Origin: a virus
Taxonomy: Duplodnaviria; Heunggongvirae; Uroviricota; Caudoviricetes
Virus record (IMG/VR): IMGVR_UViG_2541047830_000013
DNA length: 38,621 nucleotides
Direction: 5' to 3' (one strand)
Numbering within the stretch: the first letter of the stretch is position 1; each line of letters starts with the position of its first letter. The notes below the pieces were generated by a model. The model was not told where the DNA came from, did no database searches, and saw nothing but the letters and a program-made list of their open reading frames with translations. This document shows, in pieces, positions 3,824 to 9,342 of this stretch. The position numbers and the translations under genes are program-made.

Positions 3824-4119
3824 GCGCCATCAACCACCAGGAATTACGCGAACTGGCGACTGACCTGCAACGAATGGCAACGCCTCAAAAATTACTGGCG
3901 TTTCGCGCAATGCTCTCGCCGTCTGCTGTGCTGGCGCTGCTGGATGAGCTGGAGCACGCCAGAACCACACCTCTCGCCATTCGCCTGACGCTCCGTCATG
4001 AAATCGAGGATTTCTGCGCGACGTTGGAGGCGCCAGGCGAACCGGAAACGCCGGAAGCAATACAGCAAGAGCTGCTGCAACGCATTGACAAGGTTTTTGA
4101 TTTTTTTCTGAACCACTAA
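3820..4119 (+). CDS. Hypothetical early-region protein (99 aa)
   Basis: ATGA overlap with upstream gene; acidic, helix-rich composition. Confidence 0.5.
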   Translation: MSAINHQELRELATDLQRMATPQKLLAFRAMLSPSAVLALLDELEHARTTPLAIRLTLRHEIEDFCATLEAPGEPETPEAIQQELLQRIDKVFDFFLNH

Positions 4120-4240
4120 GAAACCAGAACATGCACACACAAAAAAACCGCTTGCCATGCCGCAATCAGTCAGGTTACATTTCCGCTGCACCTCACAAAA
4201 CGGGTGCCGGGTTTCGCAGCCTGCTGACTACACAAGCGCA

Positions 4241-4262
4241 CAACCGCGCCAGCGGTTTTTTT
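4241..4262 (+). terminator. Rho-independent terminator-like hairpin (aaccgc-gcca-gcggtt followed by a T7 run)
   Basis: Stem 4242-4247 / 4252-4257, then ttttttt to 4262; lies in a 320-bp stretch with no convincing ORF. Confidence 0.5.
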
Positions 4263-4441
4263 GTGCGTACTGTATTGCCACGTTTTTTTCGCGTCAGAAT
4301 TATGGCGGGGCGTACGGGGCCGACTTCGGTCGGGCCGGGTTCTTGTGTAGCCGGTACTGCGAACCTCGTACGTCTCGCCACCCACAGTTTCGCAGCTCTG
4401 GATGGTGAGTTTTCACAACTTACTACACAAGGGGCCACACC

Positions 4442-4672
4442 ATGGCAAACCGCAAACCACACCGCGCTATCGCGGAGCGTCGTCACATCCAGACTGAAAT
4501 CAACCGCAGACTTTCCCGCGCATCACGCGTCGCGCAAATCATGCACATCAATATGCTGCATGAGCGCAGCCACGCACTATCAAACATTTATTCCGCCTCT
4601 GTTTTCAGCTATCTGGCGGATGATCTGCACGAGCTTCAACAGCTCATCCAGCAGCAAAACAAACTCCATTAA
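4442..4672 (+). CDS. Hypothetical basic protein (76 aa)
   Basis: ATG 4442 with AAGGGG 7 nt upstream; preferred over the overlapping low-complexity 205-aa ORF 4131..4748. Confidence 0.4.
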   Translation: MANRKPHRAIAERRHIQTEINRRLSRASRVAQIMHINMLHERSHALSNIYSASVFSYLADDLHELQQLIQQQNKLH

Positions 4673-4744
4673 CTCCTGTTCCGGGCCTTTCCTGCACCTT
4701 GCGGCGGGAGGCCTTCGCACATCTGTAACAAGAGGATTGCCGCA

Positions 4745-5110
4745 ATGATTCTCGCCAACGACTTTCTTGAATACCTGCTCAACACAGAACGTGATCTTGC
4801 CGCTCGCGTGCGTGATCGTTATGACATGTACCTGAAATCCCTGCCTGTACCGCAGCTCGCTGACGGAAAGATTGTTATTGATGGTCGCTACATGATTGAC
4901 AGCCACGAGGGAAATTACAGGCTTTACCGCATTGAAGGTGGCACCCCGTCCGTTATTGGCATTTACCAGCGCCCATCCTCTGCAATCGTCGATGTGATTG
5001 CCGACAGCATCCGCATCACACATCGCCATGCCGACACAGAAGACACCGTGCTGGAAATTCAGCGGCTGGCTACAGTCTGCCGCGACACCCTGAATGGCAT
5101 GACGAAGTAA
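4745..5110 (+). CDS. Hypothetical protein (121 aa) upstream of gene A
   Basis: ORF-track entry with ATG start. Confidence 0.5.
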   Translation: MILANDFLEYLLNTERDLAARVRDRYDMYLKSLPVPQLADGKIVIDGRYMIDSHEGNYRLYRIEGGTPSVIGIYQRPSSAIVDVIADSIRITHRHADTEDTVLEIQRLATVCRDTLNGMTK

Positions 5111-5116
5111 ATCACT

Positions 5117-7939
5117 ATGACGGCAGAGTACATCAGGGACTGGCAACAACCGCGCCACGCAGTGGGGCGTGAAGGAACGGGGATCCCCGCTCCTGAATCC
5201 GCGCTTTCCTCCTGGCTGGATGCCTACCGGGTAGAGAACGAGCACCGCCAGGAAATGGCTGATGCGGCGTTCTCCGCAACGCCGCTGGGCAACCTGATTA
5301 ATAAAAGCCTGGACGCACAGGAAAAACAGGACAAAACCATCACACTGGCAGGAGATGCCAGAAAACAGGCACGCGGCGCGGTGGATGAAGCCATGGCCTC
5401 GCTGCGCCTGCTGCCGTCCTATCTGCGCGATCCGCTTATTCGCCACCTCTCCTTCCTGCGCAAAAAACAGGAAGCCGATCGTCAGAAAGGCAAAAAGAGC
5501 TGGCAGGCTGAACGCTACGCGCGCGGAAACCTGCGCAAAATATTCGAACGTCTGGAGCGCACCGATCACCGCTGGCTGACACAGGGTTATCGCTCCCTTG
5601 CCGGACGCGAACGCCTGGACGATTTGCTTTACCTGCCGCAGCTCAACAAACACCAGATACAGACACTGGCCACCATGACGGCGGCGATGTTCAGCAGCAC
5701 CTTCGAAAAACTCTGCGATGGCTTTGGCGCGACCGATGGCGAACTGACCATGGATGTAACGCTGAAGGCGTATCAGATGCTGGCCCGCATGGCGTTACAC
5801 CTGCACGCCATGCCTCCACATTATGACGCACTGACAACAGACAAAGACCAGAGGAACGAACCGGACACGGAGCTGCTGCCGGGCGCAATCCTTCGCCTGA
5901 CCTGTGCAGAATGGTGGAAACGCAAACTGTGGCTGTTACGTTGCGAGTGGAGAGAAGAACAACTCCGCGCCGCCTGTCTGGTTTCCAGAAAAACATCGCC
6001 CTATCTGAGCCAGGACGCGTTAAGCGAGTTTCGCGCACAGCGCGAGAAAACACGCGATTTCCTGAAAAGTTTCATGCTGGAAAATGAAGACGGGTTCACG
6101 ATTGATCTCGAGACGGTGTATTACGCGGGAGTAAGTAACCCGGTTCACCGTAAGGCAGAAATGATGGCCACCATGAAGGGGCTGGAACTTCTGGCCGAAG
6201 CCCGTGGCGACAAAGCGGTGTTTCTGACTGTCACCTGCCCGTCAAAATACCACGCCACAACAGAGAACGGTCATCCGAATCCCAAATGGAACGGGGCCAC
6301 CATGCGCGACTCCAGCGATTACCTGGTTAACACGTTTTTTGCGGCGGTCCGCAAAAAACTGAACCGCGACGGTCTTCGCTGGTATGGCATCCGCACGGTG
6401 GAGCCTCACCATGACGGCACCGTGCACTGGCATATGATGGTCTTTGCTCATCCGGAAGAAATCGACAGCATCGTGGCCATCACCCGCGATATTGCCATTC
6501 AGGAAGACCGCCACGAGCTGGGCAATGATATTACTCCGCGCTTTAAGGCGGAGTATGTCGACGGCTCAAAAGGCACACCAACCAGCTATATCGCGACCTA
6601 CATCGGAAAGAACCTGGACAGCCGCGCCGTGGATGGCATCGACCCGAAAACGGGCAAGCCACGCGTTGACCACGAAACCGGAAAATCAATGGCCGAGAGT
6701 GTGGAGCGCGCCATCGGCTGGGCGCGCCTTCATCGGGTCCGCCAGTTCCAGTTCTTTGGCATCCCCTCCCGTCAGGTGTGGCGTGAACTGCGCCGCCTTG
6801 CCAGCCAGATGGCACGCAACCCGGAAGGCCCGCAACGACTGAAAGATGACGCAATGGATGCGGTACTCGCTGCCGCCGATGCCGGGTGTTTTGCCACCTA
6901 CATTGAAAAACAGGGCGGCGTACTTGTTCCACGCAAAGACTACCTGATTCGCACCGCCTACGACCTCGCAGATGAGCTGAATGATTACGGCGAACAGAGC
7001 GTACAGATTTACGGGATCTGGTCACCACTCATCGGGGAATCCTCCCGTGTGTGCACGCATCCGGATAACTGGAAACTGGTAAGACGTAAACCGGAAACGG
7101 AAGACAGCGCCCGCGAAAATGGTTTTGACCTTCAGGGCGGCCCTGCCGCCCCTTGGACTCGTGGCAATAACTGTCCCCGTGTACAGGAAACGGACAACAA
7201 CGGGACAGAACAGCCGGAAGAACGGCCAGCACCGTGGCCGCAGCTCCCTGACGGCGTTGAAGTGAACGAATGGATGCGCTCACTGAAACGACACGAACGC
7301 CGGGCGCTGATGCGTTCGCTTCGTGACAAACAGGCAAAAAACAGCAGCGATGAAATGCAGAGCTGGACACAGAGCCGCAAACAGCAGCGGCCTTTGCCTG
7401 ATAACCACGAATTACTCGCTAAAGAATGGCGGGAGTCTGCTGAATCTCTCGGCCTGCATATCGGTGAACAACAGATGCAGCACCTGTTACGGGGCGGCAG
7501 TCTGTACGTTGACGGCAGCATCATTGCACCGCAGGGATTTGAAATTGTACGCAAACCGGATACCCGCCCGGACAGCCGAATCACGCAGCTCTGGCAGCGC
7601 CTGAGCCGTAATCACGGCGTAAGCAGCACGGAGATCCGCCATAACCCGGTCTCCAGCTATCTGGCACAGCTCGGGGCATCAGACCCCGAAGCCGCCGCAC
7701 GCCTGGCATCCACACTTCAGCAGGTCCAGAACACCATGAAAACACCCGTTACCGTGCTTTCTGACATGCTGCGCGCCATTCGTGACGCAGAGCACGCACA
7801 GAGAATCAGAGAAACCACTGAACGCGCCCGCCGCAAAGCAAACCTGCTGAGGGCTGGCCTGACCAGTGGAAACAAAAAACAGACAGAAACGGGATTCACA
7901 AATCCCGTAAATGAGCAAAAAACGCGCCGCGATATATGA
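5117..7939 (+). CDS. A: Rolling-circle replication initiator (P2 gpA-like, HUH endonuclease)
   Basis: 940 aa; HUH-type motif VHWHMMVF (HWH codons 6425-6433); paired catalytic tyrosines YIATY (codons 6587-6589 and 6599-6601); position after the early operon. Confidence 0.9.
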   Translation: MTAEYIRDWQQPRHAVGREGTGIPAPESALSSWLDAYRVENEHRQEMADAAFSATPLGNLINKSLDAQEKQDKTITLAGDARKQARGAVDEAMASLRLLPSYLRDPLIRHLSFLRKKQEADRQKGKKSWQAERYARGNLRKIFERLERTDHRWLTQGYRSLAGRERLDDLLYLPQLNKHQIQTLATMTAAMFSSTFEKLCDGFGATDGELTMDVTLKAYQMLARMALHLHAMPPHYDALTTDKDQRNEPDTELLPGAILRLTCAEWWKRKLWLLRCEWREEQLRAACLVSRKTSPYLSQDALSEFRAQREKTRDFLKSFMLENEDGFTIDLETVYYAGVSNPVHRKAEMMATMKGLELLAEARGDKAVFLTVTCPSKYHATTENGHPNPKWNGATMRDSSDYLVNTFFAAVRKKLNRDGLRWYGIRTVEPHHDGTVHWHMMVFAHPEEIDSIVAITRDIAIQEDRHELGNDITPRFKAEYVDGSKGTPTSYIATYIGKNLDSRAVDGIDPKTGKPRVDHETGKSMAESVERAIGWARLHRVRQFQFFGIPSRQVWRELRRLASQMARNPEGPQRLKDDAMDAVLAAADAGCFATYIEKQGGVLVPRKDYLIRTAYDLADELNDYGEQSVQIYGIWSPLIGESSRVCTHPDNWKLVRRKPETEDSARENGFDLQGGPAAPWTRGNNCPRVQETDNNGTEQPEERPAPWPQLPDGVEVNEWMRSLKRHERRALMRSLRDKQAKNSSDEMQSWTQSRKQQRPLPDNHELLAKEWRESAESLGLHIGEQQMQHLLRGGSLYVDGSIIAPQGFEIVRKPDTRPDSRITQLWQRLSRNHGVSSTEIRHNPVSSYLAQLGASDPEAAARLASTLQQVQNTMKTPVTVLSDMLRAIRDAEHAQRIRETTERARRKANLLRAGLTSGNKKQTETGFTNPVNEQKTRRDI

Positions 7940-7984: not shown

Positions 7985-8015
7985 CGGTTAATTAACCAAC
8001 ATAAGGAAAATCGAC

Positions 8016-8975
8016 ATGAAAATTTGTATCGACGACGGCTCCACCAACATCAAGCTGGCATGGACTGAGAATGGCGAACGCCGCAACGCCATCAGCCCGA
8101 ACAGCTTCAAGTCGGAATGGTCTGCGCCGTTCGGTGGCATGCAGCCCGCGAACTACATGCTTGATGGCGTGCGCTATGGTTTTGATCCGGTCAGCGATCG
8201 CTTTGTCCAGACGACCGACACGCAATACCAGTACAGCGATGTGAATGTAATCGCCATTCATCACGCGCTGGTCAAATCAGGCATCACGCCACAAGAGGTG
8301 GATGTGGTTGTCACCCTGCCACTGAGCGAGTATTTCGAGACAAACGCACAGCCGGACATGGCCAACATCAACCGCAAAAAAGCGAACGTTATGCGCTCGG
8401 TGGAGTACCAGAACGGCGAAGCATTCACTATCCGTAACGTGCGGGTTATGCCTGAATCCATTCCGGCTGGCTTTAAAGCACTGGCTGACATGAGTCCGTT
8501 TGAATCCCTGCTGATTGTGGATTTAGGCGGAACCACGCTGGATGTGGCAAAGGTTCAAGGGCAACTGGCAGGTATCAGCCAGGTGTTTTGCGATCCACAC
8601 GTAGGCGTTTCCCTGATGGCCGATGCCGTACTGTCGGTGATGGCCACTAACGGTATGCGCACCAGTCACCACATCGCCAATACCATTATCGAACATCGCC
8701 ATGATGAAGCCTGGCTGCGCCAGCACATCCACAATGACGCGCATTACGCCAGCCTGATGGCGGTTATTCGTGAAAAGGAAGAAACACTGAAACAACGCGT
8801 GATCCGCGCGCTGGCGGTTTTTTCGGGTTACGGGCGGGTGATGGTTGTCGGTGGAGGGGCGGAGATTGTGGCACCCGCTATCCGCGAAGTCTGCGGAGTT
8901 AATGCGACTTTCATCGCGGACGGAGTGCCACAGTTTGCTCTGGTTAATGGGCTGTACGCAATGGACAAGGAGTAA
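8016..8975 (+). CDS. parM: ParM/StbA-like actin-family segregation ATPase
   Basis: N-terminus MKICIDDGSTNIKL closely resembles plasmid R1 ParM (MLVFIDDGSTNIKL) as recalled; actin-fold phosphate motifs DDGSTNIK and DLGGTTLD; GGGA near C-terminus. Confidence 0.85.
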   Translation: MKICIDDGSTNIKLAWTENGERRNAISPNSFKSEWSAPFGGMQPANYMLDGVRYGFDPVSDRFVQTTDTQYQYSDVNVIAIHHALVKSGITPQEVDVVVTLPLSEYFETNAQPDMANINRKKANVMRSVEYQNGEAFTIRNVRVMPESIPAGFKALADMSPFESLLIVDLGGTTLDVAKVQGQLAGISQVFCDPHVGVSLMADAVLSVMATNGMRTSHHIANTIIEHRHDEAWLRQHIHNDAHYASLMAVIREKEETLKQRVIRALAVFSGYGRVMVVGGGAEIVAPAIREVCGVNATFIADGVPQFALVNGLYAMDKE

Positions 8976-8979
8976 ACCA

Positions 8980-9294
8980 ATGACGACACCAACCAGACGG
9001 ATAAGTTTCTATCTGAAGCCCGCCGCCGTCAAGAGTGAACAGGAGGCGTGCAATTACCTCGATAGCCTGCCAGCCTCCGAACGCAGCCGCGCGCAACGCG
9101 CGGCCTTTCTGGCTGGGCTAGCGCTCATAAAGCGCAACCCAGCATTTGCCTACTGGATGGCCGAATGGCCAGAGGACAACCTCCCCTTCAATACCGTTAG
9201 CATCAAGGAAACATACCAGGATAATCAGCCTAGCGGAGTTGAATGCAATTTTTATAAAATAAAAAAGAATATTCAGACCTTATTCCCAGAATAA
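8980..9294 (+). CDS. parR: ParR/StbB-like centromere-binding adaptor
   Basis: LDSLPASERSRAQRAAFLAGLAL resembles R1 ParR LDSIPQGERSRLNRAALTAGLAL as recalled; directly downstream of the ParM-like gene. Confidence 0.7.
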   Translation: MTTPTRRISFYLKPAAVKSEQEACNYLDSLPASERSRAQRAAFLAGLALIKRNPAFAYWMAEWPEDNLPFNTVSIKETYQDNQPSGVECNFYKIKKNIQTLFPE

Positions 9295-9342
9295 TCTGAT
9301 AATTGTATGTGAACTAATAAAATACAGACCAACACATCATTC

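Follow-up and report, generated by a model that had tools for sequence, protein, structure and literature searches.

Positions 4120 to 4441 of the IMG/VR virus record IMGVR_UViG_2541047830_000013, a stretch of 38,621 nucleotides referred to here as the window, lie within the early operon of a P88-like phage (Xuanwuvirus, Peduoviridae; the P2 family), an Escherichia coli prophage. We conclude, with a probability that we put at about 0.88, that this interval is an IsrK-C4 antisense-RNA control cassette, that is, an immunity or anti-repressor switch. The system is the one already seen in immI of phages P1 and P7, in the immunity region of satellite P4, with its CI RNA, and in isrK-STnc1160-anrP of Gifsy-1; the family is known, this member of it is unannotated, and the kind of mechanism is not new. 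A preliminary description, made from the letters alone, had drawn attention to a terminator, a hairpin and duplicated modules in what it took to be a non-coding stretch. What it missed is the identity of these parts: two adjacent known RNA genes and their antisense target boxes.

Two RNA families in the interval

The covariance-model scan that the preliminary description had proposed was run with Rfam over the whole window at the curated gathering thresholds. It returned exactly two matches, both on the plus strand and both inside the interval. One is an IsrK-type leader small RNA (sRNA), the seqA or a1b1 region of related systems, at 4188-4262 (RF01394, 64.1 bits against a gathering threshold of 50, model positions 1-77 of 77). 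The other, at 4298-4385, is a c4 or CI-type antisense RNA (RF01695, 83.2 bits against a threshold of 45, E-value 4.5e-15, model positions 1-87 of 87). No tRNA or tmRNA was detected in the window.

The leader has the layout of IsrK, with a pair of hairpins and a single-stranded linker, followed by an intrinsic terminator at 4242-4262. This is the terminator that had been noticed from the sequence, and in a terminator scan its stem occupies 4242-4257, with the T-run continuing to 4262. A second T-run, the T7 tract at 4283-4289, is likewise present; the scan detected no stem in front of it, and we rejected it as a second terminator.

The c4 RNA is built on an outer stem (4303-4319 with 4364-4380), with hairpin 1 at 4320-4333, hairpin 2 at 4334-4355 and a junction at 4356-4363. 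Hairpin 1 is the UUCG-type hairpin of the preliminary description, CCGACTTCGGTCGG at 4320. The minimum free energy (MFE) of the c4 fold is -47.7 kcal/mol (z = -4.46), far more stable than that of shuffled sequence. Eight homologues, in a comparison that took in P88, a Citrobacter phage, three lambdoids, P1 and P4, show compensatory changes, on both sides of the pair, in 12 of the 27 c4 pairs. The ends are those of P1 c4, with a conserved 5' AAUUAUGG and a 3' CCACC, and by comparison with P1 the mature RNA would extend from about 4304 to about 4382. The interval had also been called GC-rich, which holds only mildly (55% for 4120-4441 against 51% for the window); the c4 part alone reaches 65%.

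Boxes that change together in three copies

The duplicated modules are real: GTTTCGCAGC occurs at 4211 and 4387, ACTACACAAG at 4227 and 4422, and each is found only there in the 38.6-kb window. Repeats of this kind are far beyond chance. What had gone unnoticed is that the cores of both repeats have their reverse complement between the two copies, namely CTTGTGTAG at 4342, its sole occurrence in the window, and CTGCGAA at 4357. Both fall in unpaired parts of c4. The b' recognition sequence, CUUGUGUAG (4342-4350), forms the loop of c4 hairpin 2, and the a' recognition sequence, CUGCGAA (4357-4363), lies in the single-stranded junction. Their exact complements, of 7 nt for a and 9 nt for b, start at 4213 and 4228 upstream of c4 and at 4389 and 4423 downstream of it, all on the plus strand. 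Box a1 (UUCGCAG, 4213-4219) occupies the loop of IsrK hairpin 2, and box b1 (CUACACAAG, 4228-4236) the IsrK linker. Box a2 (UUCGCAG, 4389-4395) stands in the leader of the downstream mRNA, and box b2 (CUACACAAG, 4423-4431) overlaps AAGGGG (4429-4434), the Shine-Dalgarno sequence of the gene that follows. The duplex predicted by RNAduplex between the c4 loop and b2 has 11 bp (4423-4433; -14.3 kcal/mol) and covers most of AAGGGG. In the MFE fold of the read-through leader, a1 and b1 are paired with a' and b' in cis, a fold that resembles the "structure A" of the Gifsy-1 study. A search for extra c4 targets in the window yielded none that we retained: CTACACAAG occurs only at the two boxes, and TTCGCAG at two further sites, which is about the number expected by chance.

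The preliminary description had also proposed looking for compensatory changes in related prophages. For this purpose relatives were defined as loci encoding a protein at least 88% identical to the 76-amino-acid product of the downstream gene; 83 further loci of this kind were retrieved, and adding the window, P88 and the Citrobacter phage gives 86 P88-like sequences. The cassette is present in all 83. Among the 86 sequences there are 16 combinations of a and b alleles, and the a and b alleles reassort. Variation is concentrated in the six boxes, the remainder of 4140-4441 being almost invariant. The three-way repeat relationship is found, with other sequences, in every relative examined, and the a/b alleles change in step in all three copies, in the relatives as in P1, P4 and the lambdoids.

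To quantify the covariation, one sequence per allele type (15 types) was aligned. Between c4 and a2/b2, 98.3% of cells are paired and 9 of the 16 pairs have changed on both sides, compared with 38-47% paired cells in controls in which the sequences were slid against each other. Between c4 and a1/b1 all cells are paired (100%, so that a1 complements a' in every one of the 15 types) and 10 of 16 pairs have changed on both sides; here the slid controls give 26-52%. For neither pairing did any of 500 shuffles reach the observed covariation score. Duplex energies agree, with a mean of -25 kcal/mol for cognate and -15 kcal/mol for non-cognate combinations, and for 14 of the 15 alleles no other target does better than the cognate one. 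Together, covariation and cognate energies are direct evidence that the RNA-RNA pairings are under selection and that the boxes act as specificity determinants.

One sequence departs from the common plan. In locus L078 (IMGVR_UViG_2582580934_000004, positions 270-310) the c4 RNA has an extra hairpin and thus two b' loops, CTTTGCTCT and CTTGTGTAG, the former known as the b' allele of a different common type. Recombination between alleles at the palindromic CCGG stems may have left such an intermediate; a c4 RNA of dual specificity or an assembly chimera could explain it as well.

The gene probably under control of the switch

The gene behind b2 (4442-4672, plus strand) encodes 76 amino acids and is a homologue of the P4 epsilon "derepression" (anti-repressor) gene. 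Its product matches the Pfam family PF25738, "Derepression protein family", with 32.5 bits against a gathering threshold of 27, and is 29% identical to P4 epsilon over 66 amino acids (BLASTP, E-value 4e-9); for P4 epsilon the same model gives 170 bits. There was no NCBIfam match for the 76-amino-acid protein. P4 epsilon inactivates the C repressor of P2. The phage in the window carries a P2-type C repressor, 37% identical to P2 gpC, whose only Pfam domain match is a sub-threshold helix-turn-helix (HTH_3); by analogy, the 76-amino-acid protein would act as an anti-repressor against the C repressor of its own phage. An anti-repressor gene follows the RNA module in P1, in P4 (from the known role of epsilon), in the lambdoids and, by homology, here.

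Predicted transcription signals and a conserved left edge

A consensus scan predicts a promoter at 4152-4181 (plus strand; -35 TTGCCA, 18-nt spacer, -10 TACATT) from which transcription would start near 4188. The site is nearly invariant among the relatives. Promoter-like hexamers stand at the equivalent position in P1 (where they are annotated), P4 and the lambdoids, the positional analogues being P1c4/P51b in P1, PLE in P4 and PisrK in Gifsy-1. A second candidate before c4, at 4275-4303, was set aside as a chance match to the consensus, because its -10 coincides with AAUUAU, a conserved part of the c4 precursor, so that a start there would truncate c4. The segment from 4263 to 4297 (plus strand), spacer and 5' leader of the c4 precursor, includes the T7 run and is mostly conserved among Xuanwuvirus relatives.

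At the left edge of the conserved region lies a further element, ACACACAAAAAAACCGCTTGC (4135-4155, plus strand), made up of an A7 tract and ACCGCTTGC and belonging to inverted repeat I1. It is complementary at 19 of 21 positions to 4248-4268, which comprises the terminator loop, the 3' strand of its stem, the U-run and six bases beyond; the best of 3000 dinucleotide shuffles reached 18 of 21. Its core is invariant in the 86 relatives and the sequence to the left of the core varies. The element is present in all Xuanwuvirus cassettes and absent from the lambdoid and P4 versions (background 13 of 21). In the MFE fold of 4125-4270 (-55.5 kcal/mol, z = -4.25) the helix formed by 4135-4155 replaces the terminator. 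Covariation between the two arms is uninformative, the sole variable paired position being a base of the terminator loop. As the element is located 5' of the cassette's own transcription start, only early-operon transcripts would contain it. It may be a promoter-dependent anti-terminator for upstream transcripts, an UP-element-like A-tract, or both. As an anti-terminator, it could allow early transcripts to reach gene A.

A model for the switch

By analogy with the homologues, we propose that transcription begins at about 4188, from the conserved promoter near 4152-4181, and that most transcripts would end at the 4242-4262 terminator, giving a short IsrK-like RNA with a1 and b1. Read-through transcripts would hold c4 (about 4304-4382), and RNase P together with other nucleases would excise it, if P1 and P4 are a guide. 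The c4 RNA would then offer b' of its hairpin-2 loop and a' of its junction for pairing with b2 and a2, which stand in the leader of the following gene. Since the duplex at b2 would mask the Shine-Dalgarno sequence, the epsilon-type anti-repressor would go untranslated, and in a lysogen c4 would hold it in that state. Rho might terminate the untranslated mRNA early, as it does in P1 and P4, and so lower the expression of orf121 and of gene A. The system could be switched on when a1/b1 of IsrK, in cis or in trans, competes for the c4 sequences, as shown for IsrK of Gifsy-1. The a/b sequences would serve as an address code; phages with different alleles should therefore not cross-repress.

Several points weigh against this interpretation. 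The three homologues that have been studied differ in what is stressed: in P1 it is translational block together with polarity, in P4 it is termination, and in Gifsy-1 it is activation by IsrK. The homology to epsilon is modest, at 29% identity and 32.5 bits. The predicted promoter matches the consensus at only 9 of 12 positions. The IsrK part is no more stable than shuffled sequence (z = -0.05), so that support for it comes from the covariance model and the terminator. Finally, an open reading frame (ORF) runs uninterrupted across the RNA part in 41 of 45 unique relatives and has a borderline Pfam match, and some translation of the leader may therefore take place.

Comparison with known systems

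The tandem of leader and C4 is found in P88, the Citrobacter Xuanwuvirus, the three lambdoids, P1 and P4, each with its own a/b sequences. In all of these, as in the window, the leader reaches the isrK threshold, except in P1, where it passes the c4-a1b1 model instead.

The likeness to immI of P1 and P7 is close. The c4 RNA of P1 scores 68.8 bits on RF01695, and the annotated order in P1, with promoter(s), a1, b1, c4, a2, b2 and a first ORF (icd, then ant), is the order in the window. The gap between a1 and b1 measures 8 nt in the window and 7 nt in P1; in both phages a2 stands directly 3' of c4, b2 has the same position, 10 nt separate the end of b2 from the start codon (that of icd in P1), and the junction holds a', the hairpin-2 loop b'. 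Specificity resides in short a/b sequences in these phages too, which reportedly account for the difference between P1 and P7, and the c4 RNA of P1 and P7 is said to block icd translation at a2/b2 with polarity on ant. Unlike in P1, the first ORF in the window is of epsilon type and not an Icd: the 76-amino-acid protein has no similarity to P1 Icd, and the candidate was dropped. No Ant1/2 gene follows it, and the phage integrates, as a member of the P2 family, whereas P1 is a plasmid prophage.

P4 agrees with the window in the order and orientation of an IsrK-like RNA (60.8 bits in P4), a C4 RNA (74.9 bits in P4) and epsilon. The controlled proteins are homologous and belong to the same Pfam Derepression family, replication genes lie further downstream, and the a/b alleles are combinatorially variable in both. 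In P4, however, some 245 nt separate C4 from epsilon, whereas in the window b2 sits on the epsilon ribosome-binding site. To our knowledge P4 has no protein repressor, CI RNA being its immunity factor; the window phage carries a C repressor of P2 type. Its RNAs are also nearer to the lambdoid versions, and blastn finds lambdoids, not P4. The CI RNA of P4 pairs with seqA and seqC and terminates transcription ahead of the replication genes (PMC4825925; PMC3632133). In P4-like satellites (loci L093-L172) the seqA, seqB and seqC alleles lie about 250-520 nt upstream of epsilon. One of their a' alleles, TTTCCAC, is shared with the lambdoids Stx2a_1447 and ST64B, and none is shared with Xuanwuvirus.

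With Gifsy-1 and with lambdoids of the Stx, ST64B and mEp460 types, the IsrK and C4 tandem has about 70% nucleotide identity; both Rfam models match there, and the module is immediately upstream of an anti-repressor gene. The anti-repressor is of Rha/AnrP type in these phages and of epsilon type in the window, and the terminator-complementary element of 4135-4155 is absent from them. In Gifsy-1, IsrK in its short, terminated form has complementarity to the RNA downstream and acts in trans on the read-through transcript to turn on translation of the anti-repressor, and the stretch that corresponds to c4 gives rise to a processed RNA of about 80 nt, STnc1160 (PMC4825925). Hfq binding and trans-activation of the downstream ORF by IsrK are known only for Gifsy-1 (PMC4825925). 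The equivalence of IsrK with seqA and of C4 with CI has been put forward before, under the name "IsrK-C4 immunity system", for P4, P1, P7, N15 and lambdoid prophages (PMC3632133). According to the summary given there, a small processed RNA of N15 that is alike in structure, CA RNA, controls the anti-repressor AntC (Ravin et al. 1999, cited in PMC3632133).

Alternative explanations

An explanation modelled on P4 would place the main output elsewhere: by pairing with a1/b1 and a2/b2 on early transcripts while these are being made, c4 would stop transcription prematurely before orf121 and gene A, so that the replication genes are controlled at the level of transcription. It is compatible with the switch proposed above and differs from it in emphasis; we hold it possible, though tentatively. 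IsrK, C4, epsilon, small ORFs and the replication gene follow one another as in P4, where CI RNA works in just this way on seqA and seqC (PMC4825925; PMC3632133), the cassette belongs to the early operon, with gene A following 445 nt downstream, and the element at 4135-4155, which is specific to this cassette, could let upstream transcripts bypass the IsrK terminator. Yet b2 lies on the ribosome-binding site as it does in P1, where by annotation the primary event is translational, the phage already has a protein repressor, and Rho-dependent sites are not predictable from sequence. On this explanation, c4 would be an RNA immunity factor in the full sense, directed at copies of the phage that superinfect or are derepressed. 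The target might also be foreign. P4-like satellites use P2-family phages as their helpers, and c4 might be aimed at the seqA and seqC of such satellites, blocking the expression of their epsilon and alpha genes, a role suggested for lambdoid prophages (PMC3632133). The a/b code of the satellites is equally variable (13 combinations in 82 cassettes), but no a allele, no b allele and no combination is common to the 82 P4-like and 85 Xuanwuvirus cassettes. Each Xuanwuvirus c4 matches its own a2/b2, and the cognate target is therefore in cis; an anti-satellite device is very improbable. The repeats might, on the other hand, work as DNA, as a replication origin or an array of operators for a binding protein, as direct repeats in an intergenic region of the early operon beside a replication gene could lead one to suspect. 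Every repeat is exactly reverse-complemented in the c4 loop or junction, however, and the three copies change together in a manner that preserves RNA pairing, including G-U pairs, which have no meaning for DNA binding. The region has neither iterons nor an AT-rich unwinding element, and both of its halves pass curated RNA covariance thresholds. Its direct repeats are the a/b boxes and an 8-nt copy of GCCGGGTT (D3) that is common to the hairpin-2 stems of IsrK and c4; its inverted repeats are the a/b pairings or else involve the terminator and the flanking A/T runs (I1, I3, I7 and I8). The origin of P2 is located inside gene A. We consider the origin or operator reading effectively refuted. The preliminary description had left the choice open between a structured RNA and a protein-binding or origin-related element: Rfam matches and compensatory changes bear out the former, and nothing was found to support the latter.

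A coding function has to be weighed as well. The interval could encode an "Ash family" protein, from the ORF at 4131-4748 (205 amino acids), or a translated leader ORF that begins at the AUG of AAUUAUGG (4302) and resembles orf45 of Gifsy-1, whose translation is coupled to that of the downstream gene. The long ORF matches the Pfam family PF10554 (Phage_ASH) with 26.5 bits against a gathering threshold of 26; its frame, besides being open across the RNA part in most relatives, continues through the epsilon gene in 45 of 46; its stop overlaps the ATG of orf121 (ATGA, 4745-4748); and orf45, which starts at the homologous AUG, has been seen as a tagged protein and is needed for anrP translation (PMC4825925). 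Set against this, the PF10554 match (amino acids 16-109) covers exactly the isrK-c4 nucleotides (4176-4458), and in P4 and three lambdoids the family likewise picks up translated copies of the RNA module. The box changes compensate one another as RNA, simultaneously at three sites, which selection on a protein does not explain, and the frame is broken in 4 relatives. The authors of the Gifsy-1 study found nucleotide but no amino-acid conservation in orf45 (PMC4825925). Within the epsilon gene, 6.4% of synonymous recodings leave the long frame open by chance, and the 96 variable sites of 4442-4669 are enriched at third positions of the epsilon frame (43 of 96) but not at those of the long ORF (29 of 96); an overlapping gene in that frame through epsilon was accordingly rejected. 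A translated protein with conserved amino acids, which is what membership of the Ash family implies, is not what we find here, and protein coding by the interval is unlikely. Of the statement that the interval is non-coding, the part directed at ordinary coding sequence stands, with the reservation that the frame through the module is open in most relatives. Similarly, the only long ORF, which had been dismissed as a low-complexity artefact, does exist; it is not of low complexity, and represents a translation of the RNA module.

Because PF10554 falls exactly on the RNA genes, the family looks as though it was built on translated RNA genes, and "Ash" proteins appear to be translations of the isrK-c4 module. 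The frames in which PF10554 matches occur are 4131-4748 in the window, 8171-8584 (minus strand) in L091, 2146-3294 in L005, 2441-3301 in L004 and 2147-3301 in L006. The matches lie only on isrK-c4 translations, in the window, in the P4 "cI ORF" and in N-terminally extended "antirepressor" coding sequences (CDSs) of lambdoids. The starts assigned to the long anti-repressors of lambdoids are probably too far upstream. The ATGA overlap at 4745-4748 is the arrangement reported for orf45 and anrP in Gifsy-1; in the window it is probably coincidental.

Locus context, prevalence and annotation

As the preliminary description had it, the early gene upstream of the interval stops at 4119 and an ATG at 4442 opens the next gene; the ORFs on both sides have strong PHROG matches. 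The gene set of the phage includes an integrase, the P2-type C repressor, Cox and a GPA-type replication endonuclease (gene A, 5117-7939), which begins 445 nt downstream of the cassette. In a nucleotide search, 4100-4700 was 100% identical to Xuanwuvirus P884B11, and the stretch is contained in 1161 of 5426 complete E. coli genomes (about 21%). In close relatives, ParM-like and plasmid-partition proteins are encoded 3' of gene A (about 8000-9300 in the window, by homology to 8917-10192 of L001). Partition-type genes are unusual for an integrating P2-family phage, and the P88 group has been named in surveys of phage-plasmids.

The RefSeq E. coli genome and the P88 record that we inspected carry no RNA gene annotation over the interval. 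In the P88 record a "hypothetical protein" on the minus strand is laid over the RNAs, and another record labels the stretch "similar to ash family protein"; throughout the inspected records the cassette is either unannotated or hidden under spurious CDSs ("Ash family protein" or N-terminally extended "antirepressor" ORFs). We found no paper that describes the cassette in P88-like phages, and the P88 paper mentions neither immunity nor non-coding RNA.

The cassette is absent from one Xuanwuvirus record, that of Escherichia phage 520873 (L092, 1475-1616). The genome is not that of an ancestral, cassette-free relative: a deletion joins the start of an ead/Ea22-like ORF to the last 40 or so nucleotides of the epsilon gene, and the cassette has been lost with it. 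It follows that the cassette may be dispensable, or that the predicted prophage 520873 may be defective.

P88 was obtained after induction with mitomycin C (PMC5285337). This recovery stands beside a P2-type repressor and the lack of any LexA box above chance: matches to CTGT-N8-ACAG number 11 in the window against 11.2 expected, none of them near the cassette, and LexA control was rejected. An epsilon-type anti-repressor behind an RNA switch is a candidate for the induction trigger.

Implications

A broader view of the cassette can be formulated, which we consider rather unlikely as a whole. It would be an RNA immunity layer of P4 style in a helper-type phage of the P2 family, in which c4 gates epsilon and, by polarity, gene A, 4135-4155 is a promoter-dependent anti-terminator, the reassorting boxes make up a combinatorial heteroimmunity code under diversifying selection, and the switch offers a possible route to induction. 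If this were so, transcripts from the early promoter would fold the element onto the IsrK terminator and read through, while those from the cassette's own promoter, which do not contain the element, would terminate.

Correct annotation of the cassette marks a probable control point between lysis and lysogeny in a widespread group of P2-family prophages. The natural series of more than 15 matched RNA-target specificity alleles could help in studying the diversification of antisense immunity, or could supply regulatory RNAs that are orthogonal to one another. Lastly, the anti-repressor family of P4 epsilon is linked to phages of the helper type.

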